A stretch of 64,000 nt of DNA from Escherichia phage Ec_YwIITB1, in sequence record PQ356294.1, one strand, 5' to 3'. Under the pieces are notes generated by a model. That model saw only the letters and a list, made by a program, of their open reading frames with translations. It was not told the DNA's origin and ran no database searches. Position numbers and translations under genes: made by a program. Within the stretch, counting starts at the first letter, position 1. Every line of letters begins with the position of its first letter. Of this stretch, positions 1 to 40,786 are shown one piece after another.

Positions 1-14
1 TTTTGAAATAAAAA

Positions 15-34
15 GGGAGAGCCTCGGCTCTCCC
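15..34 (-). terminator. intrinsic terminator-like hairpin downstream of gene 52
   Basis: GGGAGAGC-CGAG-GCTCTCCC stem-loop followed by U-run on the minus-strand transcript. Confidence 0.6.
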
Positions 35-185
35 TAAAATTACTGCATGACTGTGATAACTATCATGATAACACGTTGAATTCCGAACGCAAGAAGACCT
101 CCTGCTACAGCAGGAACAACACCTAAACCAGCCAGTAAAATGCTACCAGATACTAACGCAGCGCTTGTAATACCTATGAATGGAC

Positions 186-1514
186 TCATTTGATTTCCTC
201 TAAATCTTTGGTGTATTCTGTAACTACATCAGTAGTTTTCCAATATTCGTTTTCTTCTTTTTTGGCTTTAGCTTCTTCAGCAAGTTTCTTTGCTTCGTCA
301 GAAGTCATATGAAAAATATTCATTCCAACTAGTTTATCAACATAAGAAGAATACATATCAATTTTAGAAAGTTCTTCTGTTAGCTCTTTACGAGTTTTAC
401 CTTGTACAACAATTTCACCTGAAATTACTTTCTTAATGAAATGCGCCTTGGCAAAAGCTAAACGAAATGCTGATTCAGTTTCTTTTATTTTGTTATCAAT
501 TCGTTTTTGGACATAAGTTTTACGAACTTCAACGAAGTCTTTGATTAAATCAACTACGTTATCGTAAACTTGCAGCTTTCCTTTCTCATTAATGACGGTA
601 ATATTCTGGGAACGACGCTCAATCAACCCGAAGTCTTTCATAATTTTTGCATGGCGTTCTTCTTCGTTATCGCTTAAGGAATATTCTTTACGGAATTTAA
701 CTTTGAAGCCAAAACCATGCTCACCACAAGCATCATCCCATGTAATGAAGCCTTTATCTTCAAGCGGGTCTAAGATTTTACTCACATAAGTTTCACGATC
801 ATACTTATACGGAATCTCGGTGATATTCATTTGAGTTCGCGAAGTAAACTTGTACGTTCCACGAATTTCATATTGACCGTCAATTTCAACGACTTCACCG
901 CGAAATTCTGGGAATTCTACCTTCGGTTTAGTTACTTTCTTTCCTTGAAGAGCCTGTAGTACAGCTTTCTTGACAGAAGAAACGCTATGAGGAAGAATGT
1001 AAGTTGCATAACCAGTTGCAATACCGGAAACACCATTAAGAAGAACAGTAGGAATAATAGGCAAATAGAAAGCAGGCGGAATGTGTTCTTTATCTTGATG
1101 TACCGGAGCATATTCAGTATCTTTATATACGTTATAGAAATTTTTACTTACACGAGCAAAAATATAACGACTTGCCGCTGCTTTTTGAACGGTACGAGAA
1201 CCAAAGTTTCCTTGACCATCTAACAGAGGAAAGTTATTATTCCAAGTATTAGCCATCAAAGCCCCAGCATCTTGTGCAGAGATTTCACCATGATGATATC
1301 CAAGGTCTGCTACACCACCTGCGATAGATGCGAGTTTGTGAAACTTATCTTTATTTCCTCGTGCCAAATCAAGAGCTCGAGCAATAACAAATCGTTGAAC
1401 TGGCTTAAATCCATCAATCATATTTGGGATAGCACGATTTTCAACCGTGTACATAGCATAAGCCAATGCTTCATTATCAATGATACTTTTTAAATCGCGA
1501 TTATTCAGTTGCAT
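186..1514 (-). CDS. 52: DNA topoisomerase II medium subunit (gp52)
   Basis: 442-aa ORF with GyrA-like type IIA topoisomerase character; length and N-terminus (MQLNNRDLKSIIDNEALAYAMYT) match T4 gp52 as recalled. Confidence 0.92.
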   Translation of the reverse strand: MQLNNRDLKSIIDNEALAYAMYTVENRAIPNMIDGFKPVQRFVIARALDLARGNKDKFHKLASIAGGVADLGYHHGEISAQDAGALMANTWNNNFPLLDGQGNFGSRTVQKAAASRYIFARVSKNFYNVYKDTEYAPVHQDKEHIPPAFYLPIIPTVLLNGVSGIATGYATYILPHSVSSVKKAVLQALQGKKVTKPKVEFPEFRGEVVEIDGQYEIRGTYKFTSRTQMNITEIPYKYDRETYVSKILDPLEDKGFITWDDACGEHGFGFKVKFRKEYSLSDNEEERHAKIMKDFGLIERRSQNITVINEKGKLQVYDNVVDLIKDFVEVRKTYVQKRIDNKIKETESAFRLAFAKAHFIKKVISGEIVVQGKTRKELTEELSKIDMYSSYVDKLVGMNIFHMTSDEAKKLAEEAKAKKEENEYWKTTDVVTEYTKDLEEIK

Positions 1515-1820
1515 AAATTTACCATACTAGTGAATGTAGTGCCATAATAACATCAGAAATGAAAAGCACGACTTGAATTAATCCGAACATTACTCCATAA
1601 TATAGTGCTACCAATAAAGTAGCAAGGGCTAATGAATAGCCCAAGATTTTCTTAATCATTAGTAGATAACAACACAAATGTTAAATATGCACACATACCC
1701 TGAGATAAAGCTTGTGAAAACACGCTGTTAGCATCGTGCAGATAGTTAAAACACATGCTACTATCCAACAAATAAATGAAATAACTCCTAATAATTTTGC
1801 GATATTCATAATATTCTCCT

Positions 1821-1976
1821 CAACTATTTTTAGAACCAATGTACGCGAATAATGATAAAATCGCTAATACACCCTGAGCTGATGCTTGCAAAAATACTGA
1901 AGTTTCTCCGGTTATTACTGTTCCGATGCATAAAAAGAACCAACAGAAAAAGGCTATACCGTGAACAAATTTCATA
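1821..1976 (-). CDS. ac: small hydrophobic membrane protein (51 aa), ac-like
   Basis: ATG at 1976 preceded by GAGGAAAA SD; 51-codon hydrophobic ORF (MKFVHGIAFFCWFFLCIGTV...), not in the track because under 60 aa; position between 52 and stp as in T4. Confidence 0.45.
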
Positions 1977-1982
1977 TTTTCC

Positions 1983-2063
1983 TCACTGGCGTCCGAAGAC
2001 GCCTTTGGTTTTAAGATTGTTACGATAGAACTGCATCACATGTTCGTTATGGAAATTACTCAT
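1983..2063 (-). CDS. stp: Stp peptide (26 aa) coding segment, in frame with the C-terminus of the ndd ORF
   Basis: Last 26 codons encode [26 protein letters not shown], which matches T4 Stp as recalled; internal ATG at 2063. Confidence 0.6.
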
Positions 2064-2534
2064 ACACACCACACATTTTGCATAATATACCTGCAAAACA
2101 AATTTAAAGTTATCAGCCAACATACGGTTCATTTCTTCAAGTGTTTGATACTCAGAATGATGATTACGAGTAAACGCTAAAGCTAACTGACCTTTTCCAA
2201 ATCCAGTCGTTAGAGGTTTCATCTTAGAAGCAGGCAAATAAAACACTGCGTATGGAACATTATTATTTGCAATAGTGCGCGCGAGCTGAGACCGACGTTG
2301 ACGAATATGACTTAGAACTGCACTGAACCCTTGTTTAGAACGCTGATTACCTACATAAAATCGTGCAGATACGCATGAACCATATGAACCATCGAATTCG
2401 CTTACTAAAAAGTAAAATCCAGGGTTAGATAAAATATCTTTGTGCGGAGTTCCCAAAAACCATTCACCGCCCTTGATTGTACCAATAACAGTTGCGCCTG
2501 CATTATTCAAATCAGTAACAGTCATATATTTCAT
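1983..2534 (-). CDS. ndd: Ndd-like nucleoid disruption protein ORF (183 aa as read, continuous with stp)
   Basis: ORF starting [26 protein letters not shown] in the ndd position between stp and denB; SD upstream. Confidence 0.6.
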
Positions 2535-2593
2535 GTTAATTTCCTCTAATTATTTTCTACTCCAAGGCCGCATGAATACACACGGCCGATAAA

Positions 2594-2809
2594 TTAATCG
2601 TCGCAGTCGACGCTCAATTCCCAAAACTCTTCTACGGTATAAGTTTCAGTATCATTTTCAATACAGAAACGTTCATTGCTGTTATTTGCTAAAGTAGCGT
2701 TAACTGTCATTTTCTCGCTAGTGCTCTTAAGAGGTGAAATACGAATTAACTGATCACCATTATCTAAACAAAAAATTTCACCAACTTTTACATCTTTAAA
2801 AATTTTCAT
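2594..2809 (-). CDS. hypothetical protein (71 aa, ndd.x-like)
   Basis: Minus-strand ORF in the T4 ndd-denB small-ORF cluster; GAGG SD upstream. Confidence 0.55.
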   Translation of the reverse strand: MKIFKDVKVGEIFCLDNGDQLIRISPLKSTSEKMTVNATLANNSNERFCIENDTETYTVEEFWELSVDCDD

Positions 2810-2924
2810 AATTCACCTCAAGGAGTATAAAATCCGAATGCAGTTGTTGACCATCCCATCCAATACGGAAAATTTGCACCGACGTAAAACACGAGAATAT
2901 AAAACCAACCACTCAACAAATTTA

Positions 2925-3143
2925 TCATTTTACACCATTCCAAATTGTTTCAACCACAGATTTTAAGCCATTTTGATGAATGTCCATTCCGACAACTGCC
3001 ATCAAATAAATTCCAACTACAACTGAACCTAAGGCGAAAATCAGCATGAAAATGAATAAAGCTGGAAAAATATTATCAAAAAACCATTCAACAAATGTAA
3101 AAGCACTACGTTTACGCTTCATATTTTCCTCACATAAATCCAA
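2925..3143 (-). CDS. hypothetical small membrane protein (72 aa)
   Basis: Hydrophobic ORF (FIFMLIFALGSVVVGIYLMAVVG) on the transcribed strand. Confidence 0.5.
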   Translation of the reverse strand: MDLCEENMKRKRSAFTFVEWFFDNIFPALFIFMLIFALGSVVVGIYLMAVVGMDIHQNGLKSVVETIWNGVK

Positions 3144-3240
3144 AGTAAGCGTTTAATACATCAATCATTAAAACGATTGGGAATATACTCAAAACTACTA
3201 GTATTATAACTACATTCCATATAGCTTTAACAATCTTTTT
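3130..3240 (-). CDS. hypothetical small membrane protein (36 aa); track ORF 3130..3378 is over-extended
   Basis: ATG (MKKIVKAIWNVVIILVVLSIFPIV...) sits just downstream of an early promoter module and GGAGG SD; the upstream part of the track ORF is translated promoter sequence. Confidence 0.4.
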   Translation of the reverse strand, partial: KKIVKAIWNVVIILVVLSIFPIVLMIDVLNAYFGFM

Positions 3241-3270
3241 CATTTTCTGTTCCTCCGTAGTTGATAGTTG

Positions 3271-3301
3271 TATAGTACCACAGAGGAACAGTCTTGTAAA
3301 C
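3271..3301 (-). promoter_or_regulatory. T4-type early promoter module (-35 GTTTAC, -10 TACTAT)
   Basis: Minus-strand GTTTACaagactgttcctctgtggTACTATAC followed by GGAGG SD; module repeated at 54857 and elsewhere. Confidence 0.6.
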
Positions 3302-3486
3302 AACTTTTTTAAAAATATTCGTAATAAATGTGAATACCAACTACTACCGCTGAAACTTGCGCAACCCACCATGCACAAGCAATAAGTACAGAATTCAAAA
3401 TTTTCATAATAACCTCATTACAAAAGTAAATGTTAAACAAATTAGTGGAATACTAATTAACCAAATAAAACACCACCATAATGAAC

Positions 3487-3750
3487 TCATAGTTCAATCT
3501 CAGCGATTTTCATTTCATTACTATTAATAGCCGCTTTAAGACTATCTGAAAGAATTACACTCCAGTGGTCATTCATATGGCCATTAACTAAGCGTGTAAT
3601 TTCTTCGGGAGTTGAAAAATAAGGCGTATCAGACTCCCAATGCGATAGTCCCAAGCGAGTATAAATCATGCCTTCATCATCGCTAGAATATTCAACCGAC
3701 ACAAACTCATCAGTTATTTTATGTTTAGCGTAATAAAATTTAAATTTCAT
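3487..3750 (-). CDS. hypothetical protein (87 aa); start re-set to ATG after SD
   Basis: ATG at 3750 (MKFKFYYAKHKITDEF...) preceded by GGAGGAG SD; track start at 3810 lies inside the promoter. Confidence 0.5.
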   Translation of the reverse strand: MKFKFYYAKHKITDEFVSVEYSSDDEGMIYTRLGLSHWESDTPYFSTPEEITRLVNGHMNDHWSVILSDSLKAAINSNEMKIAEIEL

Positions 3751-3777
3751 TTTTACTCCTCCGTAGCTGATAGTTGT

Positions 3778-3807
3778 ATAATACCACAGTCCTTGCGGTA
3801 TGTAAAC
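3778..3807 (-). promoter_or_regulatory. T4-type early promoter
   Basis: Minus-strand GTTTAC...(18 nt)...TATTAT then GGAGGAG SD. Confidence 0.6.
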
Positions 3808-3823
3808 CATTTTGTGAAATTTT

Positions 3824-4381
3824 TTAAATGGAAAGATACCATCCGTTGTAGTTGCTTTTTCTTACAACCTTACGAAGGTCTTCTCTATCACCGATGAACT
3901 TCGGAGTGTACTGGATGACACCTGGATGAATTTCTTTAGTGTTGAATATAATTATACAGTCAGCGACCTGATGATTCAGAATGGGCCCTAGATTTATTCC
4001 AGAACCGTATGGATACTCTCCGCTGCATCCTGTTGTTACAGAAATCCAACGTGAGTCAGTTTGATGTGTCTTAACTTCTACACGAAGCCCGCAGTATCTT
4101 GGATGCGCCAATACATCCCATGCGTATGTATACGGGTCATTAACATCCTCTTGGCCTTTGTTAACATACCCGCTTAGCCAATCTGCTACAAAAAACTCTG
4201 CGTACACCGCGATACGGCATCTTTCAATGACTTCTGCTTTATCCTGATTAGGATTTTGTTTTAAAGAGTATCTTGCTGTATCAGCAATTTTGACCTTCAT
4301 TTCACTAGTCAAGTCACTGTTCGATAGGGTAAATGTCGGAATCTGAAATAGTCTCTGTAAACCCGGATTCGTTTTCTGCAT
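3824..4381 (-). CDS. denB: endonuclease IV (DenB)-like protein
   Basis: 185-aa ORF in the denB position upstream of rIIB; length equals T4 DenB as recalled. Confidence 0.65.
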   Translation of the reverse strand: MQKTNPGLQRLFQIPTFTLSNSDLTSEMKVKIADTARYSLKQNPNQDKAEVIERCRIAVYAEFFVADWLSGYVNKGQEDVNDPYTYAWDVLAHPRYCGLRVEVKTHQTDSRWISVTTGCSGEYPYGSGINLGPILNHQVADCIIIFNTKEIHPGVIQYTPKFIGDREDLRKVVRKSNYNGWYLSI

Positions 4382-4643
4382 TTAGACTTTCCTTTTTACC
4401 GCTGAGATAAGCGTTATATACTTTAAGAGTGCCGTAATAAATTCGGTCATTTTCATCTAAAGACTCACGGTCAAGTTCATCGAGTTCCTTTTTATCCATG
4501 ACTATAACATCATTGCAGTAAAGAAACCCAAGTTTTTCGTGACCAAACTCAAATTTATTGCAGTACACAATATTAGCGTGATGATTTCCGTGTAGATTAA
4601 TCTCTTTTATGTCGGAATCACCGATATTCATACAATAAATCAT
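4314..4643 (-). CDS. hypothetical protein (109 aa, denB.1-like)
   Basis: ORF with AAGGGAAA SD downstream of a hairpin; overlaps denB 5' end. Confidence 0.5.
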   Translation of the reverse strand: MIYCMNIGDSDIKEINLHGNHHANIVYCNKFEFGHEKLGFLYCNDVIVMDKKELDELDRESLDENDRIYYGTLKVYNAYLSGKKESLNAENESGFTETISDSDIYPIEQ

Positions 4644-4662
4644 AATTTCCCTTAAAACAAAA

Positions 4663-4676
4663 AGGGCCGAAGCCCT
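4663..4676 (-). terminator. UUCG-loop hairpin with U-run
   Basis: Minus-strand GGGCUUCGGCCC followed by UUUUUGUUUU. Confidence 0.5.
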
Positions 4677-4870
4677 TATTTAAATTGTGCAATTCTTTTT
4701 TCTAAACAATCTGCATAAGATTTCATTGAGATGAGCTGCGAAAGCATCAGTTCTTGCTCAACTTCATTAACTGATAGAAACTTTGTGCTTTCTAAAAATT
4801 TGCTCAGTGCATTAATTTTGAGCATTAATTGATCGTATTCTTCTTTTACTCGTGCTTGATAACCTAACAT
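4676..4870 (-). CDS. hypothetical protein (64 aa)
   Basis: ORF with AAGGAAAA SD directly downstream of rIIB and a UUCG hairpin. Confidence 0.5.
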   Translation of the reverse strand: MLGYQARVKEEYDQLMLKINALSKFLESTKFLSVNEVEQELMLSQLISMKSYADCLEKRIAQFK

Positions 4871-4884
4871 AATTTTCCTTAGTT

Positions 4885-4900
4885 AAGGGCCGAAGCCCTT
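4885..4900 (-). terminator. UUCG-loop RNA hairpin immediately 3' of rIIB (structural; weak terminator)
   Basis: GGGCUUCGGCCC directly after the rIIB stop; no strong U-run. Confidence 0.4.
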
Positions 4901-5837
4901 ATTTAAATTGTTCAGTAACGTCTTCAACTACTTCGTATTGGCAGGTACGCATTTTAGCATCGTTGTAATCAATCGGAATTGATACTACATCACGCGGATG
5001 CACTTTAACTTTTACAACTCGACTGGTTGAACTGCCAAAGTGACGAATATAAGATTTAGAACACACATGCAGACCACGAGAACAAGTTTGTGTATCATCG
5101 TCATTCACGCGAGTACGTGGCATTTTAACTACTTTACCGGGACTGTTGTCAAAAGTATTTGAATGGCAGTCAAAGTAATTGCTGCGAACTACTTTCCAAG
5201 CATAGAAGTAGCCATCTTCTGTAATTTCAATATCGTTTGCTACCAAGAAATCAAAGAGTCGAGATACCGCTTTTTGGCTTGGGTTTTCCAACAGATTTTC
5301 CAAGAACGGAAAATAAAATTCAAAGTTTTCGCCTTTTTCCATCGAATCGAGAATACGATCAACTAAACCAGACCGCAATTCAATATTTTGATAGAACAAG
5401 CTTCCACCTTCAATTCGAACATCACCGGAAATATATTTTTCAACAGCACGACGAACGTTAATTTTTTGCGCCGCTTCTTCCAATTTATCTGCAACAAGCA
5501 GATTAAGAATTTCCTGGAAGTTTGAATGAGTATTAGGAGTTGCGTTATAAGTTACACCGTCAACAGTAATTGAAATGAATTTTTTAGATGCATTCCAAAT
5601 AATGTCAGATTTAGCAACTGGAGCAATAACTGCATCGCTATTAACTTTAACTGTAATATCACCGCTAATAGTAACTTTGGGACGTTTAGCTTCTTCAGCA
5701 TTTTTCAAAACACGACGGATTGTGTCAACCGATACACCTTGCCAATCAGCCAATTCCTGCTGGGTATAATTGCCGCTTGAATACAGTTTGACGATTTCAG
5801 CTTGTTCGTTTTTGGTCAGGCATTTAATATTGTACAT
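4899..5837 (-). CDS. rIIB: rIIB protein
   Basis: 312-aa ORF (T4 rIIB length) immediately downstream of rIIA; N-terminus MYNIKCLTKNEQAEIVKLYSSGNYTQQELA. Confidence 0.9.
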   Translation of the reverse strand: MYNIKCLTKNEQAEIVKLYSSGNYTQQELADWQGVSVDTIRRVLKNAEEAKRPKVTISGDITVKVNSDAVIAPVAKSDIIWNASKKFISITVDGVTYNATPNTHSNFQEILNLLVADKLEEAAQKINVRRAVEKYISGDVRIEGGSLFYQNIELRSGLVDRILDSMEKGENFEFYFPFLENLLENPSQKAVSRLFDFLVANDIEITEDGYFYAWKVVRSNYFDCHSNTFDNSPGKVVKMPRTRVNDDDTQTCSRGLHVCSKSYIRHFGSSTSRVVKVKVHPRDVVSIPIDYNDAKMRTCQYEVVEDVTEQFK

Positions 5838-5848
5838 AATTTTCCTTA

Positions 5849-8026
5849 TTAGGCCGCAAGGGCCTTCATAGTTTTAGCGATTTGGGAAACTTCATCATCA
5901 CTTAAAGAGTTGCGATAACCGATGAAGTCGGAAACAATACGGAATTTCTTGGTAAACTCAGCAACCATTTTATCACTGTTTTTTGAAGCATTATATGATA
6001 GTGTTTCAAAAAGATTAGTTACTGTCCAGATGTCATGACCGATGGTATCTTTTCCACCGTTGAAATATATCCCCCGCAATGAACTAACCATATTACCGAG
6101 TCGTGTATATTCTTCGGAAACTTCATCTGTACTGAAGTACTTCATCATAAAATCTAATTCAGGATACTTGATAATTTTATCAATATATCGTTGAGCTGAA
6201 CTTGAATAACCTACGTACTTATCATAATCTACATCATCAAAAGCATCTACATATAAATCACGCAGAGTTTCAAAAATACATTGGCACTGACCAAGTTCTT
6301 TTACCTTTTTCTGCAAAAGCGGACGAATAACATAAAATTCATTAATGCCAATAAGATTAGCCATACGAGTCAAAATACTTGTAGATGGATTACAAAGCGA
6401 TGTAGTACCATCCATAGAGAAAATATCAGAACGATGCATATATGCTACGTAACCAGTAATTTCATCTGCTTCTGATGTGAGTGTAAACAGTTCCTCTTTT
6501 TCCCAGCGTCCGTCTTTAATTTCAAACTTAAATGCAGTAGCAGCTTTAGGACGAGGAGCTTTACTTTTAACTACCTTTGGAATATAACTTTTAACTAAAG
6601 CTTCAATTTCTGACAAATAATGAATGTTAACTTCATCACTTTCAAACATTGCCATAATATCAGGGAGTAAATCAATCTGTGATTCTACTTCCGGATTAAT
6701 AAACAGAAGACGCTCATTATGATGAATATTCAAAGTGTTGTTAAATTCTTTATCATCTAATGCATGCGCTAATCCACGGACAATATTAACACGATTTTTA
6801 ATATTATCAATAACAATATTAATTTTTGTTGTATTAATACCAAACAGACGATAACTTGATGCAATGGCCGAAGTTTCATGACTTTGCTTAATGCGTTTCA
6901 GTCGAGGGTCAAGATTTACTTCATACACAACTCCTGCATTACATAACTTACTGTCAGGTTCAAACATGCTTTGCATCTTTTTATATGACAGATTTTTAGT
7001 CGTAAATTTGACTGAATTACTAATCATATAATCTCGAGCAGAATATCCCATCTTCATCAATTCACGGTATGTATGACGAGGAGATGTAGATTCTTTAAAT
7101 CGTTTTACATCTTCATTGAATGCCTTCTCACTAAGCTCTTTAACACGCTCAATAATATTTTTACGAGTACGATCATCCAATGAAAGAGCTTCGCGTGATG
7201 GAGCAATATCCAGTGAACCCATTGGAAACTTAATGTAATTCACTTCATTGCGGATGCTTAACCAGTTACGGTCTCTAATAACACCATCAATAGGATAAAC
7301 AATACCACCATAGATAGCATATAATCCACCGCGATCTAGCCAATATCTTTCTGGATTTACACCGTAATAGTCATCAAAATCCGGAAAATAATCAATTTCG
7401 CGGTCAAGACCATTAATGATAGCCAAATCTTTGAATGGTCGCATGATATAAGAAACTTCATAAGCAAAGTTTCTAAAGTCCTTTTCTTCAACTGGAACTA
7501 CGATTTCAATACCAGTTTTATCATTTGGACCCATTTCTTTTACGAATGTAGGTTTAATTTGCGGACCATCACCATCCATGTAAGCTACATAACCGCGAAT
7601 TTCACCTTTATGATACGAAGTAATACTAAATGTATCAGTATAGCTAAACGGAGATTTAGAACCTAAACCAAATCCGCCAATGAAATCGTTAGATTCAGCC
7701 TTAGATGAACTGAAGTATGAATTATACAGCCCAGGAGAATTATCATCACCCTGAATATCAAAATCGCTCATACCCGGACCAAAATCTCGGCAAACAAATC
7801 GCGGATCTAATCGTCCTGGAACTTGAATGATAAATTTTTCATGATTTCCATTGAGAGCATGGGCGTCAATCATGTTGGTAATCAATTCACGGACTACTGC
7901 GCGAATCTTGTTTGTATACAAATCAGATGATAGAATTTTAAATACTTTAGGATTTGCTGCGATGCTAAATGCTTTTGATTTAGAACCATTACCAAGAATT
8001 GTTTCTTTTTCAGTGGTGATAATCAT
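5849..8026 (-). CDS. rIIA: rIIA protein
   Basis: 725-aa ORF (T4 rIIA length) with GHKL-ATPase-like N-terminal region; classic rIIA-rIIB adjacency. Confidence 0.92.
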
Positions 8027-8036
8027 AATTTCCTCA

Positions 8037-8240
8037 TTAATTCATATTGCGTTTAATAACTTCAGCAACTTCTAGTAGTTCATCTTTAGTTGCAGTATCG
8101 GATTGAATTTTATCTCTAATATCCTTAAAGCGGTTTTTAAACTCTTCGGCTTCTCCAATATCGAAAAAGCGTTGAATGATTCTATATTCTCGATGAACTG
8201 CTTTATCAAAAAGTTCTAAATTTACTCTGTATGATTTCAT
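8037..8240 (-). CDS. rIIA.1: rIIA.1-like small protein
   Basis: 67-aa ORF directly upstream of rIIA, downstream of an early promoter with GAGG SD. Confidence 0.65.
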
Positions 8241-8265: not shown

Positions 8266-8295
8266 ATTATACCACATCCTTGTGGTAAAGTAAAC
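8266..8295 (-). promoter_or_regulatory. early promoter upstream of rIIA.1/rIIA
   Basis: Minus-strand GTTTACtttaccacaaggatgtggTATAAT. Confidence 0.65.
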
Positions 8296-10115
8296 TACTG
8301 GCTCATCCATTCTTTACGAAGGTCAGCATTATCTCCCATGAGCATTTCAAAAAGCTCTTTCCAATTCTCAGGAAGTTTAACAACATCATATACTGGGTTT
8401 TGAATCATCTCACGATATTCAGATTTTTCCAAAGAGCCAAGTCCCTTAATATAACGGATGCTATGTTTAGGTAGAGCATCTTTGGCACTCTCATATTCAG
8501 CGACTGTATAAAACCATTCTTGTTTTTTACCGACCTGAGCGATGATTACAGGAGTTTTGACGAAACGAATTCTTCCTTGTTCAAACAGTTCTGGCCAATT
8601 GCTAAAAAATCCGAGCAGAGAAGGATAAATGCTTCCTAGACCATCATGGTCGGCATCGGTCATAATTGCAATATTGTGATAATTCAAGTTTTCAGCCTTT
8701 TCACCAAGAACTAATCCGGTGATTGCGCAAATATCAAACAGTTCTTTATTTTTAAGCATATCAGCATATGACATACCCCAACTGTTGAGAACTTTACCAC
8801 GTAATGGATAACCACCATGAAGTTCTTTATCACGAACATCAATGAGATATCCAATAGCCGAATCGCCTTCAGTCAAGAAAAGAGTAGTATCAGCATCTTT
8901 ACCACAAAGATTCGCTTTAATGTGTTTATGAACCTTAGCTTTAGAGGCCTTTTTAGCTGCTTTAGTTTCTGCTGCCTTTTCTGCCGCCAATTTACGAGCC
9001 AAAGCAGCTTCAATAATTGGCATTAAAATTGCTTCATTATTTAAAATAGCGCGTGAAATCTTTTTAGCATCAAGCTGAATATGACTACGAATTTCACCAA
9101 ATGGAGAAGTCAAACGCTCTTTAGTTTGAGAATCAAATCGCATGTTTTTCATATCACGAACAAACATGACGATAGTCAAACATTCTTTAACACGTGCTTT
9201 AGTTACATCAATTTTGAACTTACGTTTGATTTGTGGAATAAGGTCTTCACAAATATCATCCATAACGCAGTCAATATGATGGCCACCATTCTTAGTATGA
9301 ATGTTATTGACGTATGTTAATTGACGAAAACCATCTGGTGAACGACCGACCGCAATAGAACAATTTTCTTGTTCTTGAACAATAGCATGCTCATCATATT
9401 GGCGTGCATATTTCTTAAAATTGCCCTGAACCTTTTTACCGTTAAAGGTAAATTGAATATCAGGATAAACTACTGCAAGTGTCTGGAGGCGATCCAATGT
9501 AATGTCAAGATAAACCTGAGACAGCTCATTAGTTTCAAATGACATAAAATCAGGAATGAAAGTAACGCGTGTTCCTTTCCATTTTCCAGGAATATCTTCC
9601 CATGATTTATTTTCCATGCCATTTGAACAACGAACTACAATATTATTTTGACCGTCGCCAGTTTCACCGACAAACATCACAGAAAAAATGTTAGTTAAAC
9701 TAGAACCAACACCGTTCATACCGCCAGTGACGCGTTCTTTGTCATCACCAAAGTTACCACCTGCTTTTGGAATAGTCCAGGCAGCAACGGGACCAGGAAT
9801 TTCTTCACCGGTAGGTGTTTTAACCATCGCTTGTGGAATACCGCGACCATTATCTTCAACTGTTACTTGGTTGTTTTTAATAGTAACATTAATTTTATTC
9901 GCGAATTTAAACTTAGTACGAATACCTTCATCTACTGAGTTATCGATAATTTCATCAATAAGCTTAACAAGACCAGGTACATACTGAACACTTTCCCATT
10001 TACCAAACAGAAAACGCTCATGCATTTCATTAGCGGAAGAGCCAATATACATGCCACTACGCTTTTTGATATGTTCAATATCGCTCAGAATTTTAATTTC
10101 ATTCTTAATCATCAC
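8295..10115 (-). CDS. 39: DNA topoisomerase II large subunit (gp39, contiguous 39+60 type)
   Basis: 606-aa ORF with GyrB-like ATPase and TOPRIM regions; single uninterrupted frame. Confidence 0.93.
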   Translation of the reverse strand: MMIKNEIKILSDIEHIKKRSGMYIGSSANEMHERFLFGKWESVQYVPGLVKLIDEIIDNSVDEGIRTKFKFANKINVTIKNNQVTVEDNGRGIPQAMVKTPTGEEIPGPVAAWTIPKAGGNFGDDKERVTGGMNGVGSSLTNIFSVMFVGETGDGQNNIVVRCSNGMENKSWEDIPGKWKGTRVTFIPDFMSFETNELSQVYLDITLDRLQTLAVVYPDIQFTFNGKKVQGNFKKYARQYDEHAIVQEQENCSIAVGRSPDGFRQLTYVNNIHTKNGGHHIDCVMDDICEDLIPQIKRKFKIDVTKARVKECLTIVMFVRDMKNMRFDSQTKERLTSPFGEIRSHIQLDAKKISRAILNNEAILMPIIEAALARKLAAEKAAETKAAKKASKAKVHKHIKANLCGKDADTTLFLTEGDSAIGYLIDVRDKELHGGYPLRGKVLNSWGMSYADMLKNKELFDICAITGLVLGEKAENLNYHNIAIMTDADHDGLGSIYPSLLGFFSNWPELFEQGRIRFVKTPVIIAQVGKKQEWFYTVAEYESAKDALPKHSIRYIKGLGSLEKSEYREMIQNPVYDVVKLPENWKELFEMLMGDNADLRKEWMSQ

Positions 10116-10139
10116 TTATCCTCGTTTGGTTTCGGGAAT

Positions 10140-10176
10140 ATTATACTCCGGTAATCATAAAGCTAAAGGCCCGAAG
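10140..10176 (-). promoter_or_regulatory. candidate MotA-dependent middle promoter upstream of gene 39
   Basis: Minus-strand TTTAGCTTTA (MotA-box-like, about 12 nt upstream of -10) ...ccggag TATAAT. Confidence 0.45.
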
Positions 10177-10181
10177 GCCTT
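10166..10181 (-). terminator. hairpin 3' of the 39.1-like gene
   Basis: AAGGCCUUCGGGCCUU stem-loop adjacent to the stop codon. Confidence 0.45.
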
Positions 10182-10451
10182 TTATTTAAAACGGATAGTT
10201 GAATCCTTGAAGAATAGACCAGAACACACAGTTCCTTCTACTTTCTGCCCAGTAGGTCCAATAGCACGAAATCCAGTATGTTGAAAATCATTTTCAGAGC
10301 AACCGAACCAATTGTATCCAGTGATTTCAATATTAGTAAAACCGCTTGAAGATAAAACTTTGGTTGCATTATCAGCATCAGTACATCCTGCTAAAGACAC
10401 TGCTAATACTAATGCTGCGATAGAACGATTAACATATTTCATAGTTTTCAC
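10182..10451 (-). CDS. predicted lipoprotein (39.1-like)
   Basis: Signal peptide with lipobox (LAVSLAGC) at N-terminus. Confidence 0.6.
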   Translation of the reverse strand: MKTMKYVNRSIAALVLAVSLAGCTDADNATKVLSSSGFTNIEITGYNWFGCSENDFQHTGFRAIGPTGQKVEGTVCSGLFFKDSTIRFK

Positions 10452-10819
10452 TTAAATTTAATGGCTTGAAGGAGACTAATAATTCTCAAGCGACTTCTTT
10501 CATCTTTAACTGTAAAAGAAAGAGGGTCGCCAGATTTCATAGTGATGGTACATCCAAAATCAAAATCTTCAGGAACTTCTTCGAAGAAGTCAAATTCTTC
10601 ATCATAAATTAAAACATTACTCTGAAAACTGTGAAGAATTTTTCCGTCATTTCCAGATGCTGTACTAATCATTGTAACATTATGGCCTTTCATATCTTCA
10701 ACGATAAATTCGCTTGTAGATATTACGGCATTAATAGAACCATTCCTATAAATAGCAGAAAATAGATATTTCTTTTCTTCACCTTCGCGAATGCGATATT
10801 TCTTACCGATTTTAAACAT
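10448..10819 (-). CDS. hypothetical protein (39.2-like)
   Basis: ORF with ATG at 10819 (track start 10825 appears to be GTG). Confidence 0.55.
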   Translation of the reverse strand: MFKIGKKYRIREGEEKKYLFSAIYRNGSINAVISTSEFIVEDMKGHNVTMISTASGNDGKILHSFQSNVLIYDEEFDFFEEVPEDFDFGCTITMKSGDPLSFTVKDERSRLRIISLLQAIKFK

Positions 10820-10821
10820 AA

Positions 10822-10998
10822 TCACCCTTTAAGTAAGTCGTAAAATCCACCATTCACATGCTTAGGAGCGGAAACTAACCGAATAGCAACCCGATGACAA
10901 TCAGGACATACATCAGTATCCCTTTCAGAAATTTTCTTGATTTTTTCGTATTCTTTTTCGCAGTCTTTGGATTGACATTTATAATCATAAAGCGGCAT
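10822..10998 (-). CDS. small zinc-ribbon protein (58 aa)
   Basis: ORF MPLYDYKCQSKDCEKEYE...DVCPDCH with two CxxC pairs; under 60 aa so absent from the track. Confidence 0.45.
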   Translation of the reverse strand: MPLYDYKCQSKDCEKEYEKIKKISERDTDVCPDCHRVAIRLVSAPKHVNGGFYDLLKG

Positions 10999-11000: not shown

Positions 11001-11414
11001 TTATTCCTTAAAGTGAGCTTTCAACATCTGATACAATGACCATGCCTGTATATTATTTTCAATAGTAATGTTCATAACCGGGAATTCAGATGGATCAGTT
11101 ATTGTTGCAGATTCTTCCTGCTCTTCAGCTGCCTGGTATGGATTTTCAACTTCATTAAAGAATTCAGCTTCATTCGATGAAAGCCAAATAAAATCTTCAT
11201 CCAAAATATCTTTACCAGAAGATAGTACTAAATTTCCAGCAAATGACATAATTTTAATAGGACGCCCAAGAGCATCCACATCTAAAATTTTAAAAGGATG
11301 CATACCTAAACGGCGTGCATAGATTCCGTTATCAGTATGGTCTTTAATAAAAGCTTCTTGAGCTTGTTTATTTTTAAATTGATACCATTTATTAACTTCA
11401 AATTTAATAGCCAT
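11001..11414 (-). CDS. hypothetical protein (137 aa; goF-region)
   Basis: Minus-strand ORF, acidic C-terminal half; occupies the goF/cef region of the T4 order. Confidence 0.55.
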
Positions 11415-16735: not shown

Positions 16736-17482
16736 TTATCCTCGGATAAGTTTAAAAATTGAACAATTTAGCGGGTATCCTCTTTTCAGTTTAAGTTTAT
16801 CAATAAAAGACAAGTTTTGATACCGCTCTACACCTTGAATAATTTTATCACACATATCATATTGCATTTCTGCTTCTGACAACTTTTTCACAGTTTTCCA
16901 ATCCGAGCCTTTAAGAAGAACGTTCAATTTAACAACTTCAGCTCCTTCTGCTATACGAGAACCATCAATACGAGCTTTGAGTGCTACAATCGTTAGCTTA
17001 ATATCAGAGGTCTGTTTTGATTTAGAAAGCTGAGAAATGTGCTCAATTCGGTTTTCACGTTTTTTCTGTATAGCTTTAATTTGATTATAAGTCTTTTTGA
17101 TTTTAGCCCATTTCTTTTCATCTAAATTTAGTTTATGAACTTTTTTCGCAGATGAACGACCAATTCGCAAAGCAAATAAATCACGCTTTTCAATCAACTC
17201 TTCTAAAGTATAATCAGAACGAAATGTATTGTACTTTTTCTTTACTGCAATAACATTCCCTTTAATGTATCCAACGTTATTATCAAAACGTTCTAATGAT
17301 AATTTCTCTCCTTCAATACGATTATCAAAAGGTTCTCCCGAGTAAGCGCAAACTTTCTGATCTAAAATGTTCTTAATGTAATTGAAGTCTAAGTTAAAAT
17401 CTTTAGAACGTCTTTTAGCAGATGCCTGAGTGTGCTCTAGACGACGTGTAATTTTACGAATTTGATTTTTAGACAGTTTCAT
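16736..17482 (-). CDS. srd: Srd-like protein
   Basis: 248-aa basic ORF between dda and modA, as in T4. Confidence 0.7.
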   Translation of the reverse strand: MKLSKNQIRKITRRLEHTQASAKRRSKDFNLDFNYIKNILDQKVCAYSGEPFDNRIEGEKLSLERFDNNVGYIKGNVIAVKKKYNTFRSDYTLEELIEKRDLFALRIGRSSAKKVHKLNLDEKKWAKIKKTYNQIKAIQKKRENRIEHISQLSKSKQTSDIKLTIVALKARIDGSRIAEGAEVVKLNVLLKGSDWKTVKKLSEAEMQYDMCDKIIQGVERYQNLSFIDKLKLKRGYPLNCSIFKLIRG

Positions 17483-17511
17483 ATTTTTCTCACGGACGGG
17501 TTAACTACTTA

Positions 17512-17542
17512 TACTATAACATTTTTACTTCAGTTTGTAAAC
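17512..17542 (-). promoter_or_regulatory. early promoter upstream of srd
   Basis: Minus-strand GTTTAC with A/T-rich upstream element (aaagttgtttac). Confidence 0.5.
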
Positions 17543-17598
17543 AACTTTATGAAAAATGCTTTAAAACTTTCGTGGTATAATGAATCTAAGTCCTTCCA

Positions 17599-18201
17599 TT
17601 ATAGATTAAATCCTTCAAAATCAAGAGTATAGATAGTGTATGTTGAATACTTTTTATACTCGTATCTATCCGCAATTCTAAATACACTTCCAGCTGGTAT
17701 CATTACTTCTTGTTCATCTGAAACTAATTCCATATTACGATAACGATGGCTATCCGGAAATTTAAAACTCGGGCTATATTCTTTACAACGTAAAGCTTTT
17801 ATAGCATACTCCTGGAAATTAAACACCATAGGAGCTTTGAATTCAAAAATAACTTGTGTATTGTATTCTAATCCAGAAGCAAAATGTAGAGCTATATTTT
17901 TATCATATGAAGCTGATACTACTTTATCAAATGTAATAATATCAATTCCTTGATTTAACACCTGCTTAGTCTCAACTGGAACACCTCTCCAAAGAGGTTT
18001 ATCGTTTGGTTCCAAACGAGATTTGATTATTTCATTTAACCAAGAATGATCGTCTGGCTTATTAGTAATACAATGAATTAAAAGTTCAATTTCAGATAAA
18101 TTAAATCCTTCGGAAAGTAATTCTTCACGAATAGAAGCACGCACGGATGCATCCATTGATTTTATTTTAAAATCTTTTAATTGCATTGCTGAATATTTCA
18201 T
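17599..18201 (-). CDS. modA: ADP-ribosyltransferase ModA
   Basis: 200-aa ORF, adjacent paralog of the next gene; T4 order srd-modA-modB. Confidence 0.8.
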   Translation of the reverse strand: MKYSAMQLKDFKIKSMDASVRASIREELLSEGFNLSEIELLIHCITNKPDDHSWLNEIIKSRLEPNDKPLWRGVPVETKQVLNQGIDIITFDKVVSASYDKNIALHFASGLEYNTQVIFEFKAPMVFNFQEYAIKALRCKEYSPSFKFPDSHRYRNMELVSDEQEVMIPAGSVFRIADRYEYKKYSTYTIYTLDFEGFNL

Positions 18202-21302: not shown

Positions 21303-21821
21303 TCAATAACCTCGGTCTTGACGAGCGAAGTTTTCAGCATTTTTCAAATAATAAAGTTTAAAGATTTCTTCAGCCGTAAGACCGAGACCTTGGAACATGT
21401 TTAGAACGAAATGAAGAATATCAATCATTTCGAATTTAATTTCCAACTGGTCTTGTGGAGACAAATCAGTAATTAAAGTTTCACGTCGTTCACCATGCTG
21501 AGCTTTCCAAGGTTTCCATACAGCAGATGCATCTTTTTCACCATTGCTCATACCACCAAGAGAAGTCAATAGTTCGCGGAATTCATCATCAATATAATCT
21601 TTTTGATTACGCAGCCAATCAACAACTTCGCCTGCGGTAGCCAAATCATCAGGATGACGGTTATATTCAGGTTTATCTTTAGCTAAACGAACCTGCAAAG
21701 ATTTCTGCATATCAAGCATAACCTGCAGCGGGTCTTTTTCATCACCGAGAATATCCCAGTATTCATTTTGAGCTTTATCAGCGCCTTCGATCAGTTGTGA
21801 ACATTCATTAAAGTAAGCCAT
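21303..21821 (-). CDS. 56: dCTPase/dCTP pyrophosphatase (gp56)
   Basis: 172-aa ORF from ATG at 21821 (MAYFNECSQLIEG...), AAAGGAAA SD; matches T4 gp56 as recalled; track start 21914 is a GTG extension. Confidence 0.88.
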   Translation of the reverse strand: MAYFNECSQLIEGADKAQNEYWDILGDEKDPLQVMLDMQKSLQVRLAKDKPEYNRHPDDLATAGEVVDWLRNQKDYIDDEFRELLTSLGGMSNGEKDASAVWKPWKAQHGERRETLITDLSPQDQLEIKFEMIDILHFVLNMFQGLGLTAEEIFKLYYLKNAENFARQDRGY

Positions 21822-21892
21822 TATTTTTCCTTTCAATTCATGGGTTAGTAGATTAATTATACAATAAATATATAAAGCAATAAGGAGGATAT

Positions 21893-22093
21893 ATGGCACA
21901 AAAATTAATGGCACTTGTTAATGCCATAAAAGGTAATAAAAAACGTATAGCTTTTACTATTTCTGCTATGGTAGGAATTTTACTCTGGAACTTTATTTTA
22001 TCGCCAATTGCAATTGCGCATGGCGTTAATATTCCAGTAGTTACTCTTGATACATTCGTAGATCTAGCATTTGCTTTAGTTGGGTTAATTTAA
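21893..22093 (+). CDS. small hydrophobic protein (66 aa) on the opposite strand
   Basis: Plus-strand ORF with strong AAGGAGG SD 6 nt upstream of ATG; predicted transmembrane segments. Confidence 0.45.
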   Translation: MAQKLMALVNAIKGNKKRIAFTISAMVGILLWNFILSPIAIAHGVNIPVVTLDTFVDLAFALVGLI

Positions 22094-23118
22094 ATCTTGG
22101 AATATTTAGATAACCGCATTTTAGCCATCAACCCCTGGGCAATATTATTTTTCATATATTCCATAATTTGTTCAGGGGTTGCACCTTCCTTTCTAATCAT
22201 ATCATTGACATCTTTTGATTTCCAGGGAGATTTATCCCAAAACATAACCCTTTCTCCTGCATCAACTAATTTAGTCATTCGTTTAATAGTGTCAGGATGA
22301 CGAGGTTCATTATCTAAAACCCACACACGTCTATCTTTAAATGGAACAATTTCTAGGTCTAATTGACCACCCGTAATAGCTATACCATTTTCAATAAAAA
22401 GTGAATCTATAGGTCCTTCTAGAACATATACATCACCATCTTTGACTCGTTCGACTCCATATATTTTTGTTGCCTCAGGATAAGCTTTGATAGTGATATA
22501 TTTTTGAGGAGCATCTTTCTTTAATGCACGTCCTTGAAAGGACTCAGCTTTTCCGTTAGCATTATAAATTGGAATAACAAGACGAGGCTCGGGCGTTTCC
22601 TTTTTATATGTTCCTGGAGCTATACTATTAACTAATTTAGGCCATTCGGTTGTAAACCAAAGATATTTCCATTTATCCTTTGGAATACAACGAGCTTTTA
22701 CATATTTTATAATTGGATGGTCTTCCGCCAGTTTATCTAATCTAACACATGACGGAAGAGCTTTAATTATTTTCTTCTCAGGATGTTTAGGAAGTTCTTT
22801 AGGTTTTTCTACTGGACGACTTTTACCTTTTTCTTTTCTTATTTCAAAGATATACTCACGATATAAATCAGGTTCAAACTCCTTTAAATATATTCCAATT
22901 GGCGCATGATAGCTGCAGTTATAACAATGAATATTTCCTTCATTATTATCACCATAATACCATCCACGCGCTTTATTTTGGTCGGTTTTTGAATCTCCAC
23001 AAACTGGGCATCTAAACCGTAATTTAAAAGTTGAACTATTATTTACTTGTGTGAATTTAGGTAAATGAGCTAATGCACGATATGCAAACTCATTATCAAT
23101 CCAAGCTATTGATGACAT
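22090..23118 (-). CDS. 61: DNA primase (gp61)
   Basis: 342-aa ORF with zinc-ribbon (CPVCGD...CYNC) and TOPRIM-like region; T4 gp61 length. Confidence 0.9.
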   Translation of the reverse strand: MSSIAWIDNEFAYRALAHLPKFTQVNNSSTFKLRFRCPVCGDSKTDQNKARGWYYGDNNEGNIHCYNCSYHAPIGIYLKEFEPDLYREYIFEIRKEKGKSRPVEKPKELPKHPEKKIIKALPSCVRLDKLAEDHPIIKYVKARCIPKDKWKYLWFTTEWPKLVNSIAPGTYKKETPEPRLVIPIYNANGKAESFQGRALKKDAPQKYITIKAYPEATKIYGVERVKDGDVYVLEGPIDSLFIENGIAITGGQLDLEIVPFKDRRVWVLDNEPRHPDTIKRMTKLVDAGERVMFWDKSPWKSKDVNDMIRKEGATPEQIMEYMKNNIAQGLMAKMRLSKYSKI

Positions 23119-23287: not shown

Positions 23288-23644
23288 TTAACCTCTATTC
23301 ATAAAAGCATTAAAAATTTGGTCATCAATCGATGGAATAGCAACCTTTTCGGCATCATTTAGCAAATCATTAATTTCATCAGATAGCATAACACATGTGC
23401 CTTTATTTCCTGTAATTGTTACTGCACAATTACGAACGTTTTCTTTATTAAATTTTAGGTTAATATTTTCGTAATGAAAATCCTTTAATGCTGAATATAT
23501 TTTTAAAATAAAATTGTCTTTTACTACAATAAATCCAACCTCACTATTAAAACGCGGTTCATGGAAGCTGTAATAAATCTTTTCATCTATGAAATCATAT
23601 GAAATTTTTTCCATTTTTAAATATGAAAATTCAGAACTGTACAT
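23288..23644 (-). CDS. 61.2: hypothetical protein (118 aa), 61.2-position
   Basis: Minus-strand ORF immediately downstream of sp in the 61.x cluster. Confidence 0.5.
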   Translation of the reverse strand: MYSSEFSYLKMEKISYDFIDEKIYYSFHEPRFNSEVGFIVVKDNFILKIYSALKDFHYENINLKFNKENVRNCAVTITGNKGTCVMLSDEINDLLNDAEKVAIPSIDDQIFNAFMNRG

Positions 23645-26304: not shown

Positions 26305-27460
26305 TTAACTGATCTAGGTCAGTTTCTAAATCAGCTGCTGATTTACTTTTACTTTCTGGAGATTTAAATTTTTCAACCTTTGAGTTAATCAATTCATCAA
26401 CTTCAGCTTCAACAATTTCATTACTATCAATAGCACCTAACTGATAAGCACGTTTAATAGCATCTCGGAATGGCTGATGCTTGAATAAAGGACCCCAGAA
26501 TGTAGTGCAATTGGTATCTTTTGCACGCCAAGATTTTTCTTCGCGAATCATCTCACCAGTTTCTTCGTCAAGAAATTCACGAGCATACCAGCCATTTTTA
26601 GGTTTTACCACAAATCCTAATTCAAGAGCCATATCTAACAATCCAGAATAAGGATCGATGCCACCGTCAAATTTAACATCAATAAAGAATTTACTTTTTT
26701 CTTTAACGGTACGAGATTTTTCTACATTTAGAACAAATTGATACCCCTGAAGATCAGAACCATCTTTAATCTGGCGCTTACCGATAATGAATACAGTATC
26801 AGCCGAATACATTACGCCTGTACCACCTGTCATCACGGTTTTACTAAACATTTCAATTGTTTCAATTGTATGGTTAACCGCAACACATGGAATGTTTTTA
26901 ATACTAAAATAAGGAGTAACAATACGGAATAATGACTTCAGTGATTTAGCACGAGTCATATCTGCCACAGATTTTTCATTCAAGGCATCTTCCGTTTCTT
27001 TCTTAGAAGCCATATTACCAATTGAGTCAATGAATACAATAACTTTTTCACCACGCTCAATAGCTTCAAGTTGATTCACCATATCAATTTTCAGCTGTTC
27101 AACTGACTGGATTGGTGTGTGAATTACTCGTTCCGGGTCAACTCCCATGGATCGCAAATAAGCAGGAGTAATACCAAATTCGCTATCATAGAATAGACAT
27201 ACCGCGTCAGGATATTTGTTCAAATACGCCGCAACCATAGTCAAAGACATATTTGATTTAAAGTGTTTAGAAGGACCTGCAAAAATGGTTAAACCAGACT
27301 GCATACCACCATCAATTGCACCTGAAATAGCGATATTAAGCATTGGGATTTTTGTACGAATTACATCCTTTTCATTAAAGAATTTAGATGTAGTCAGTTC
27401 AGCAGTCATTTTAGAAGTGGAAGCTTTAATCAAACGGGATTTTAAATCTGCAATAGACAT
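26279..27460 (-). CDS. uvsX: UvsX recombinase (RecA-like)
   Basis: 393-aa ORF with RecA fold motifs (GPSKHFKS Walker A); close to T4 UvsX as recalled. Confidence 0.93.
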   Translation of the reverse strand: MSIADLKSRLIKASTSKMTAELTTSKFFNEKDVIRTKIPMLNIAISGAIDGGMQSGLTIFAGPSKHFKSNMSLTMVAAYLNKYPDAVCLFYDSEFGITPAYLRSMGVDPERVIHTPIQSVEQLKIDMVNQLEAIERGEKVIVFIDSIGNMASKKETEDALNEKSVADMTRAKSLKSLFRIVTPYFSIKNIPCVAVNHTIETIEMFSKTVMTGGTGVMYSADTVFIIGKRQIKDGSDLQGYQFVLNVEKSRTVKEKSKFFIDVKFDGGIDPYSGLLDMALELGFVVKPKNGWYAREFLDEETGEMIREEKSWRAKDTNCTTFWGPLFKHQPFRDAIKRAYQLGAIDSNEIVEAEVDELINSKVEKFKSPESKSKSAADLETDLDQLSDMEEFNE

Positions 27461-27537
27461 TCATTTTTTCCATAGGCATCATTATATTTTCCTCACTGGT
27501 TAAAGATAAAGTAATTATAACACAATAAATTTAGGCA

Positions 27538-28386
27538 TTAATCAACTGCTATTGGATGAATAGCATTAAACTTATGAAACGCTTCTGATTTTTCTTTGCG
27601 CGAAACACACATGCGAAGAACCTTTAATGGCTCGTCTTCTTCACCTAATGATTTTCGTTTTTCAATATTAGAAGTTTTCCAACGAGCTTGCTCTGGAAAC
27701 TCTCTATTGATTTGCTCAAGCGCTCTATTATGTTTAGAATTACTACGAATTGAGCTACATCCGCCAGGAGCTTGCGCTTTTCCAGATACAACCAGATATT
27801 TGAACAAGGCCAAATGCGGATAACCTTGATTAATTAAATTGAGAAATGCATACATATCTTCGCATAAATCAATTTTTCCATACCCAATTTGTTCTGTTGT
27901 AAGTTTCCCGAGGTCATACCAAGTATTCGTGAATCCATATGAATTTTCACGATAATTACCCCAAGATGAAGTAATTTTAAAAATTGGTAAACGAGCATGA
28001 CCATGATAATACCCGCAATCCATTGCATCTTCAACGTATTGAATCAATTCATAGAACTGTTCACGAGTTAATTGATTAATTTTATCTACGCAGCGACGAT
28101 CATCTTTCTTTCGCATTGAACTCATACGAATAGTAGTATCATCATCAATCATCCAAATTCGTTGACCTGCATACATATCAGTAATCGCTTTACGAGTACC
28201 AGCAATTCCATTAACATCATCAGGAATAGTTATAATTTTAGCTCTAGACCCGTAAGCGTCATAATAAGCTTTTTCTTCATGTTCACGTACTACAATATGT
28301 GGTTCATAATCAGTCGGAAACATATCAAGGGCAGAAACTGCCCCTACACGTTGATAGCTTGGAATTACGAATTGAATCATTTCCAC
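27538..28386 (-). CDS. putative DNA glycosyltransferase (GT-A-like, DDD motif) in the beta-gt locus
   Basis: 282-aa ORF between uvsX and gene 42 with IWMIDDDTTI (DxD-type) motif; not the 351-aa T4 beta-gt as recalled. Confidence 0.6.
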   Translation of the reverse strand: MEMIQFVIPSYQRVGAVSALDMFPTDYEPHIVVREHEEKAYYDAYGSRAKIITIPDDVNGIAGTRKAITDMYAGQRIWMIDDDTTIRMSSMRKKDDRRCVDKINQLTREQFYELIQYVEDAMDCGYYHGHARLPIFKITSSWGNYRENSYGFTNTWYDLGKLTTEQIGYGKIDLCEDMYAFLNLINQGYPHLALFKYLVVSGKAQAPGGCSSIRSNSKHNRALEQINREFPEQARWKTSNIEKRKSLGEEDEPLKVLRMCVSRKEKSEAFHKFNAIHPIAVD

Positions 28387-39502: not shown

Positions 39503-39518
39503 AAGGGCCGAAGCCCTT
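39503..39518 (-). terminator. UUCG hairpin 3' of alpha-gt
   Basis: AAGGGCUUCGGCCCUU adjacent to the stop codon. Confidence 0.45.
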
Positions 39519-40720: not shown

Positions 40721-40786
40721 TTAATATCCTCATTGTTTTGGTTTATTTTACCAAAAATTTATAAAGCAATATAGGGGCCGAAGCTC

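Follow-up and report, generated by a model that had tools for sequence, protein, structure and literature searches.

An unsplit gene 39 for the topoisomerase II large subunit in the T2/T6-like phage Ec_YwIITB1

Gene 39, its product and its partner subunit

The stretch of DNA analysed here, hereafter the window, comprises 64,000 nucleotides of Escherichia phage Ec_YwIITB1 (sequence record PQ356294.1). On its minus strand, positions 8295-10115 form a single open frame that amounts to 606 aa if it is counted, as in the ORF listing, from a GTG at 10115. The codon right after this GTG is an ATG (10112), with a GAGGA ribosome-binding site (10119-10123) located 6 nt upstream, and translation from it begins with MIKNEIK, which is the annotated gp39 start in T4, T2 and T6. 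Because of this spacing and of the match to the annotated starts, ATG 10112 is almost certainly the initiation codon, and the gene (8295-10112) likely measures 1818 nt including the stop and encodes 605 aa. The original prediction had described one uninterrupted ORF of 606 aa; its continuity is borne out, as a single frame is colinear with both gp39 and gp60 of T4, and its length has to be reduced by one residue. The product corresponds to the PHROGs family phrog_543, “DNA topoisomerase II large subunit” (E 2.4e-295), and the gene is referred to here as gene 39.

The surrounding gene order is that of the T-even phages: gene 39 is flanked on one side by rIIA (5849-8026) and rIIA.1 (8037-8240; Pfam T4_RIIA1, E 1.7e-33), and on the other by 39.1 (10182-10451). 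The interval upstream of gene 39 (10121-10180, minus strand), read directly off the sequence, may act as its control region. Besides the GAGGA at its edge, it contains a TATAAT (10140-10145) and, immediately past the 39.1 stop, a GGCC-UUCG-GGCC hairpin (10167-10180); no promoter or terminator was called in this interval by a consensus scanner. The UUCG hairpin was also considered as a bypass element and rejected, being terminator-like, intergenic and unrelated to bypassing.

Three Pfam families are matched by the gene 39 product, all of them above their gathering thresholds, and motif searches complete the picture of its organization. Its first part is a GHKL ATPase domain (HATPase_c, PF02518; 9666-9974, aa 48-150; E 2e-9), which carries the ATPase motifs EIIDNSVDE (9927-9953), DNGRGIP (9834-9854) and GGMNGVGSS (9699-9725). 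It is followed by the transducer domain (DNA_gyraseB, PF00204; 8961-9365, aa 251-385; E 1.5e-13), with the QTK loop in the form QTKERL (9111-9128, aa 329-334), and by the core of the Toprim domain (8640-8873), delimited by its motifs and by its colinearity with the corresponding part of the ParE, GyrB and Top2 structures. This core holds TEGDSA, with the conserved catalytic glutamate (8856-8873, aa 414-419), PLRGK (8793-8807), and DADHDG, the metal-binding acidic cluster (8640-8657, aa 486-491). The remaining part is the Toprim-associated C-terminal domain (TOPRIM_C, PF16898; 8301-8558, aa 520-605; E 4.2e-7), equivalent to the body of T4 gp60. All the hallmark motifs of the ATPase, transducer and Toprim regions are present in one frame, and the Toprim, inside whose core stretch the T4 insert site lies, is uninterrupted.

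This composition is that of the B-module of type IIA topoisomerases (GyrB, ParE and the N-terminal half of Top2), i.e., GHKL, transducer and Toprim domains together with an A-module partner. Indeed, the product can be aligned colinearly and without gaps, over residues ~5-605, with ParE, yeast Top2 and human Top2 alpha and beta, the E values being 1e-59 for human Top2 beta, 6e-56 for yeast Top2 and 2e-47 for ParE. Phage gp39 shares its ATPase-transducer-Toprim architecture with ParE, GyrB and the N-terminal half of Top2, but their sequences are distant. T6 gp39, available in cryo-EM structures (PDB 8ylu chain C, 8yo1 and others), is identical to the window protein at 603 of 605 residues.

The A-module partner is encoded by gene 52 (186-1514, minus strand), the topoisomerase II medium subunit of the GyrA/ParC-like cleavage-religation type, which was recognized by tblastn and Pfam. 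T4 gp52 matches it with 99.3% identity across 442/442 aa, and the window product in turn matches DNA_topoisoIV (E 4.4e-76). With 442 aa, phage gp52 is short when compared with the bacterial and eukaryotic type IIA enzymes. The topoisomerase II of T2 and T6 is a two-subunit enzyme, and both the relaxation activity and structures of the T6 enzyme have been published (Nat Commun 2024, PMC11461880). The gp39 of the window is a complete GyrB/ParE-like large subunit of an ATP-dependent type IIA topoisomerase and, by analogy, two copies of it would associate with two copies of gp52 in a T6-like A2B2 enzyme. In such an assembly, gp39 would be in charge of ATP binding and hydrolysis and would supply the Toprim metal site, while gp52 would contribute the catalytic tyrosine for double-strand passage. 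The near identity of gp39 to the characterized T6 protein suggests that it is enzymatically active.

The topoisomerase II of T4 relaxes DNA and does not supercoil it. It consists of three subunits and needs ribosome hopping for its synthesis, whereas two subunits and ordinary translation would suffice in the phage studied here. No second topoisomerase fragment is needed in the latter, because the gene 39 ORF is full length.

Comparison with the T2/T6 and T4 loci

In the genomes used for comparison (AP018813 for T2 and MH550421 for T6), gene 39 also measures 1818 nt, encodes 605 aa and occupies the same place in the order rIIA, rIIA.1, 39, 39.1. Its nucleotide identity to the window gene is 95.0-95.5%. 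At the protein level, one residue differs in T2 (F70L) and two in T6 (D172T and Q525H in the 605-aa numbering, 173 and 526 in the 606-aa count), the window protein carrying D172 and Q525 where T6 has T and H; the other changes are synonymous. The order of the domains and their motifs are the same in the three proteins, and no functional difference from T2 or T6 gp39 is expected.

The T4 reference (NC_000866, positions 1-7000) is annotated with rIIA, rIIA.1, 60, 60.1, a mobA pseudogene fragment and 39, gene 60 being joined across a 50-nt “non-coding translational bypass region” (2803-2852). The starting statement of the original prediction, that T4 divides this protein between genes 39 and 60 with mobA and a 50-nt bypass, agrees with this annotation; Edgell et al. 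(2010, PMC2988022) likewise list the mobA insertion as what divides the gene in T4 when it is compared with its relatives. T4 and the window have the flanking rIIA.1 and 39.1 in common. By blastp, and in the 606-aa count, T4 gp39 aa 1-473 correspond to ORF aa 2-474 (98.5% identity) and T4 gp60 aa 27-160 to ORF aa 473-606 (95.5% identity), the two matches adjoining in one continuous frame of the window ORF. Both alignments that had been proposed as a check, against T4 39/60 and against gene 39 of T2 and T6, are colinear.

At the nucleotide level, blastn aligns T4 5600-3911 with window 10383-8695 and T4 2793-2190 with window 8630-8027. The 1117 nt lying between these blocks in T4 (2794-3910) have no counterpart in the window, where 64 nt are found instead (8631-8694). 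This T4 insert comprises a 43-aa gp39 tail, the mobA pseudogene, 60.1, a gp60 head of ~30 aa, a recoded homR and the GGA-UAG...GGA bypass cassette. The codons of T4 read GAT CAC GAT GGA, then UAG CCUUCGGGCUAUC ... UUAUUGGA, then UUA GGU UCU; those of the window read GAC CAT GAT GGT CTA GGA AGC. In the window, Gly491 is a GGT directly followed by CTA (Leu-Gly-Ser), and there is neither a stop, nor a GGA take-off codon, nor a 50-nt gap at this point.

The search for the other components of bypassing gave the same outcome. The sequence of the T4 take-off hairpin has no match in the whole 64-kb window with up to three mismatches allowed, and RNA folding of the 100 nt at the site (window 8601-8700) is no better than that of shuffled sequences (z = -0.09), in view of which a cryptic structure at the Gly491 codon was rejected. 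The control folding of T4 recovers the GGAUAGCCUUCGGGCUAUC take-off stem-loop (z = -2.07). Altogether, the blastn breakpoints, the GGT-CTA codons, the hairpin search and the folding confirm what the original prediction had read from the ORF, namely that both the bypass and the mobile insertion are absent; the take-off/landing GGA pair that it proposed to look for does not occur at Gly491.

The possibility that the insert had moved to another place in the window was also considered. T4 2794-3920 and its products were used as queries against the window by blastn (word size 7) and tblastn. The insert DNA gave chance-level matches only, with E values of at least 0.059, and gp60.1, the mobA fragment and the gp39 tail gave no tblastn match below E 0.7 in the window, the best one for the gp39 tail having E 0.86. 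The only part of the gp60 head with a match is homR (residues 27-46), and this match falls inside the gene 39 ORF (E 3.9e-7); for the element-specific residues 1-26 the window offers none. Relocation within the window was rejected in view of these chance-level matches. Furthermore, full-length gp60 and gp39 were sought elsewhere in the window and tblastn finds the gene 39 ORF only; neither a truncated ORF nor a gene-60-like segment at another place, which the original prediction had named as evidence that would speak against it, appears within the window.

Of the T4-type split organization, i.e., two ORFs with their extensions, the HNH endonuclease gene mobA or its pseudogene between them and a 50-nt gap with a stem-loop, no component was found in the window. 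What is present between rIIA.1 and 39.1 is an ORF of ~605 aa that spans the gp39 and gp60 parts and includes the parental 64-nt segment. We consider it very close to certain that this ORF is the ordinary unsplit gene 39 of a T2/T6-like Tequatrovirus, without the MobA element and without bypass. The appropriate annotation would be gene 39, topoisomerase II large subunit, 605 aa, starting at ATG 10112, with no recoding event.

The 64-nt segment and the MobA element

The segment that stands in place of the T4 insert (8631-8694, minus strand) covers codons E474-S494 in the 605-aa numbering, and was delimited by the blastn breakpoints, the codon alignment and the comparison with T2 and T6. The literature already contains a description of this “parental” unsplit form and of the 64 nt that are replaced in it. 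According to Manning and Atkins (2022, bioRxiv 10.1101/2022.08.31.505936), the MobA element, of ~1.1 kb, enters the “parental Topo2L” between AA 466-473 on the 5′ side and D490/G491 on the 3′ side. In the HY01/T4 clade, the 64-nt region is deleted, a diverged homR and then the bypass cassette are found in its place, and the element reaches 9 nt past the landing codon (Manning and Atkins, 2022). The breakpoints in the window, A473 on the 5′ side and G491 plus 9 nt on the 3′ side, with 64 nt replaced, are in exact agreement with this description. The “parental Topo2L” genomes (RB14, HY01 partners) are unsplit like the window and show no difference in kind from it.

The three-subunit form of T4 originated through the insertion of a MobA homing-endonuclease element into the Toprim-coding region, 64 nt giving way to ~1.1 kb and a 50-nt bypass cassette. 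The lineage of the window, in turn, would either never have received the element or have lost it cleanly, its homing site being left unoccupied. The original prediction had spoken of an “ancestral-type” locus, a view that fits the “parental Topo2L” of the preprint as well as the gap-free alignment with ParE and with the yeast and human enzymes.

The window segment is identical to that of T2 at 60 of its 64 positions, and the four differences are all synonymous; the homR of T4 differs from it at most codons. As summarized by Manning and Atkins (2022), Bonocora et al. (2011) reported that MobA nicks T2 gene 39 inside the 64-nt region/homR, and that protection from nicking is conferred by the bypass insert and not by the homR polymorphisms. 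As only four synonymous differences separate it from the T2 target, window 8631-8694 is probably an unoccupied homing site that MobA could cleave. A different reading would be that these four differences by themselves give resistance to MobA nicking without the bypass cassette; if true, such a resistance allele would represent a second, cheaper route of immunity against the MobA element. The data give no hint of it, and we regard it as very improbable; in the cited work as summarized there, even the far more diverged polymorphisms of homR failed to prevent nicking.

The absence of the element is not restricted to this site: mobA, segF, segA, mobB, mobC, the nrdD intron with I-TevII and mobD have no tblastn match in the window. 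T2-like phages are known to be poor in homing-endonuclease elements, and the genome studied here, judged in the 64-kb window, is likewise generally poor in them, the empty mobA site being a single example. With an empty MobA site and seven absent endonuclease genes, the phage would be a plausible naive recipient for homing or marker-exclusion crosses, a matter of practical convenience and not of discovery.

Whether the gene is ancestral or restored deserves separate discussion, as the cassette could have been present once and then precisely reverted, e.g., through recombination in a co-infected cell with a relative that carries the unsplit gene. Recombination is free among T-even phages and, compared with T4, the window is mosaic, its blocks ranging from 77% to 97% in identity. 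Many independent insertions of the MobA element are described beside closely related uninserted genomes, as well as “hit and run” clades that lost the endonuclease and the bypass (Manning and Atkins, 2022). Nevertheless, these hit-and-run cases keep tail and head extensions derived from the element, neither of which could be traced in the window. The 64 nt are of the parental kind, as in T2 and T6, and do not correspond to the diverged homR of the element. The absence of seven out of seven T4 homing-endonuclease genes of the interval also fits an element-poor lineage. A precise reversion is, in our opinion, very improbable and, even if it had occurred, it would have left a gene that could not be told apart from the parental allele. 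The reading retained here remains that of an ordinary unsplit gene 39 at an empty MobA site.

Identity of the phage and frequency of the unsplit form

The window is colinear with T4 from position 163690, through the origin, to ~62083. In the blocks that align as far as T4 56449, which add up to 53.4 kb, mean nucleotide identity to T4 is 93.3%; the remaining 6.6 kb are also colinear, with blocks at 84-95% identity. The nearest genomes in the database are Shigella and Escherichia Tequatroviruses, ~96% identical. A 282-aa beta-glucosyl-HMC-alpha-glucosyltransferase (phrog_842, E 1.9e-89) replaces segA and beta-gt of T4 and is the glucosylation gene of the T2/T6 type. On sequence grounds, the phage is a Tequatrovirus outside the T4 species, because of its identity to T4 and of this glucosyltransferase, and not because of the missing cassette. 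The original prediction had placed it “outside T4 proper”; that conclusion stands, and the argument from the cassette does not, since HY01, HY03, RB55, vB_EcoM_112 and Salmonella phages carry it. Its type is accordingly that of a T2/T6-like Tequatrovirus and not of T4, the value of the result residing mostly in a correct annotation.

The frequency of the unsplit form was estimated with a junction query of 164 nt (window 8581-8744), a record being counted as uninterrupted if at least 80% of the query was covered. This query replaced an earlier count of 495 records, which may mix in T4-type ones whose separated pieces had been joined. The uninterrupted junction was found in 423 phage records, including Escherichia, Shigella, Yersinia, Salmonella, Citrobacter and other T4-like phages, and the T4 insert in 43 (T4 isolates, RB55, RB59, HY01, HY03, vB_EcoM_112, some Salmonella phages and others). 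The unsplit form is the majority one, with ~90% of the sequenced relatives.

These counts also bear on whether a collapsed or chimeric assembly, or an annotation artefact, might hide a gene that is truly split. Against this stands the recurrence of the same uninterrupted 164-nt junction in all 423 independent records, those of the reference phages T2 and T6 included. Moreover, the junction corresponds to the parental allele and not to fused T4-type flanks, and the frame and the 1818-nt length are exactly those of T2 and T6. The probability of such an artefact is practically negligible, and the unsplit gene 39 can be taken as a real feature of the phage. Several records already label the unsplit gene; in that of phage ime09, it appears under the name “gp60plus39”.

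T4 homing-endonuclease sites and neighbouring divergence

None of the seven homing-endonuclease genes that T4 carries in the syntenic interval is present; tblastn across the whole window returned no match to any of them. The corresponding sites are found at 8631-8694 (mobA), 21305-21339 (segF), 27449-28394 (segA), 40712-40735 (mobB), about 45199-45219 (mobC), 46496-46497 (the group I intron of nrdD, with I-TevII) and 57392-58353 (mobD), and nrdD itself is one 605-aa ORF (45216-47033). At the T4 mobD position there are instead two unrelated minus-strand ORFs. One, of 153 aa (57387-57848), matches phrog_944 "membrane protein" at E 5e-49; the other, of 173 aa (57851-58372), matches phrog_1502, function unknown, at E 6e-66.

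Gene 56, encoding the dCTPase (21303-21914, minus strand), shows 74% amino acid and 77% nucleotide identity to T4, whereas the blocks that flank it reach 92-96%. The goF gene (11001-11414) is likewise divergent, with 77% amino acid identity to T4. Gene 56 and goF are local hot spots of mosaic divergence, adjoining sites of segF in T4.

DNA modification and candidate anti-defence genes

T4 Dam (DNA adenine methyltransferase) found no tblastn match within the window. T4 dam (T4 16846-17625) lacks a counterpart here, about 900 nt of T4 corresponding to about 20 nt (window 21862-21881) between gene 56 and gene 61 (22090-23118). In place of T4 segA and the beta-glucosyltransferase gene, the window encodes on its minus strand a 282-aa beta-glucosyl-HMC-alpha-glucosyltransferase (27538-28386; phrog_842, E 1.9e-89; Pfam TAGT, E 1.2e-9); DNA glucosylation is of the T2/T6 type. 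The alpha-gt gene (39518-40720) is 90% identical to that of T4.

Two small window-specific ORFs, both on the minus strand, stand in for T4 61.2 and 49.3. The first, of 118 aa (23288-23644), matches Pfam AdfA (anti-DarT factor A, E 2.1e-8); the second, of 129 aa (48639-49028), matches DUF7205 (E 1e-10) and also the T7 gp5.9 RecBCD-inhibitor family, the latter at an E of 0.0026 that is sub-threshold, below the cut-off. Both are possible anti-defence genes.

Gene 39.1 and its surroundings

In the window as well as in T6, the N-terminus of gp39.1 (gene 10182-10451, minus strand) carries a lipoprotein-like signal with the lipobox MKYVNRSIAALVLAVSLAGC. In the T4 reference, by contrast, the same N-terminal part is out of frame and interrupted by stops, and the annotated product has only 65 aa, so that T4 39.1 looks truncated relative to the 39.1 of its relatives.

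Directly 3′ of the 39.1 stop codon lies a GGCC-UUCG-GGCC tetraloop hairpin (10167-10180, minus strand), followed, upstream of gene 39, by a TATAAT (10140-10145). These elements look like a terminator/promoter pair, which the consensus scanner did not call.

Between 39.1 and 39.2 there is an extra 125-aa ORF (10448-10825, minus strand; phrog_622, E 7.6e-30), RB32ORF005c/RB69ORF005c-like and weakly similar to a GoF family (phrog_13003, E 2.6e-6), which is missing from T4 but has an equivalent in T6.
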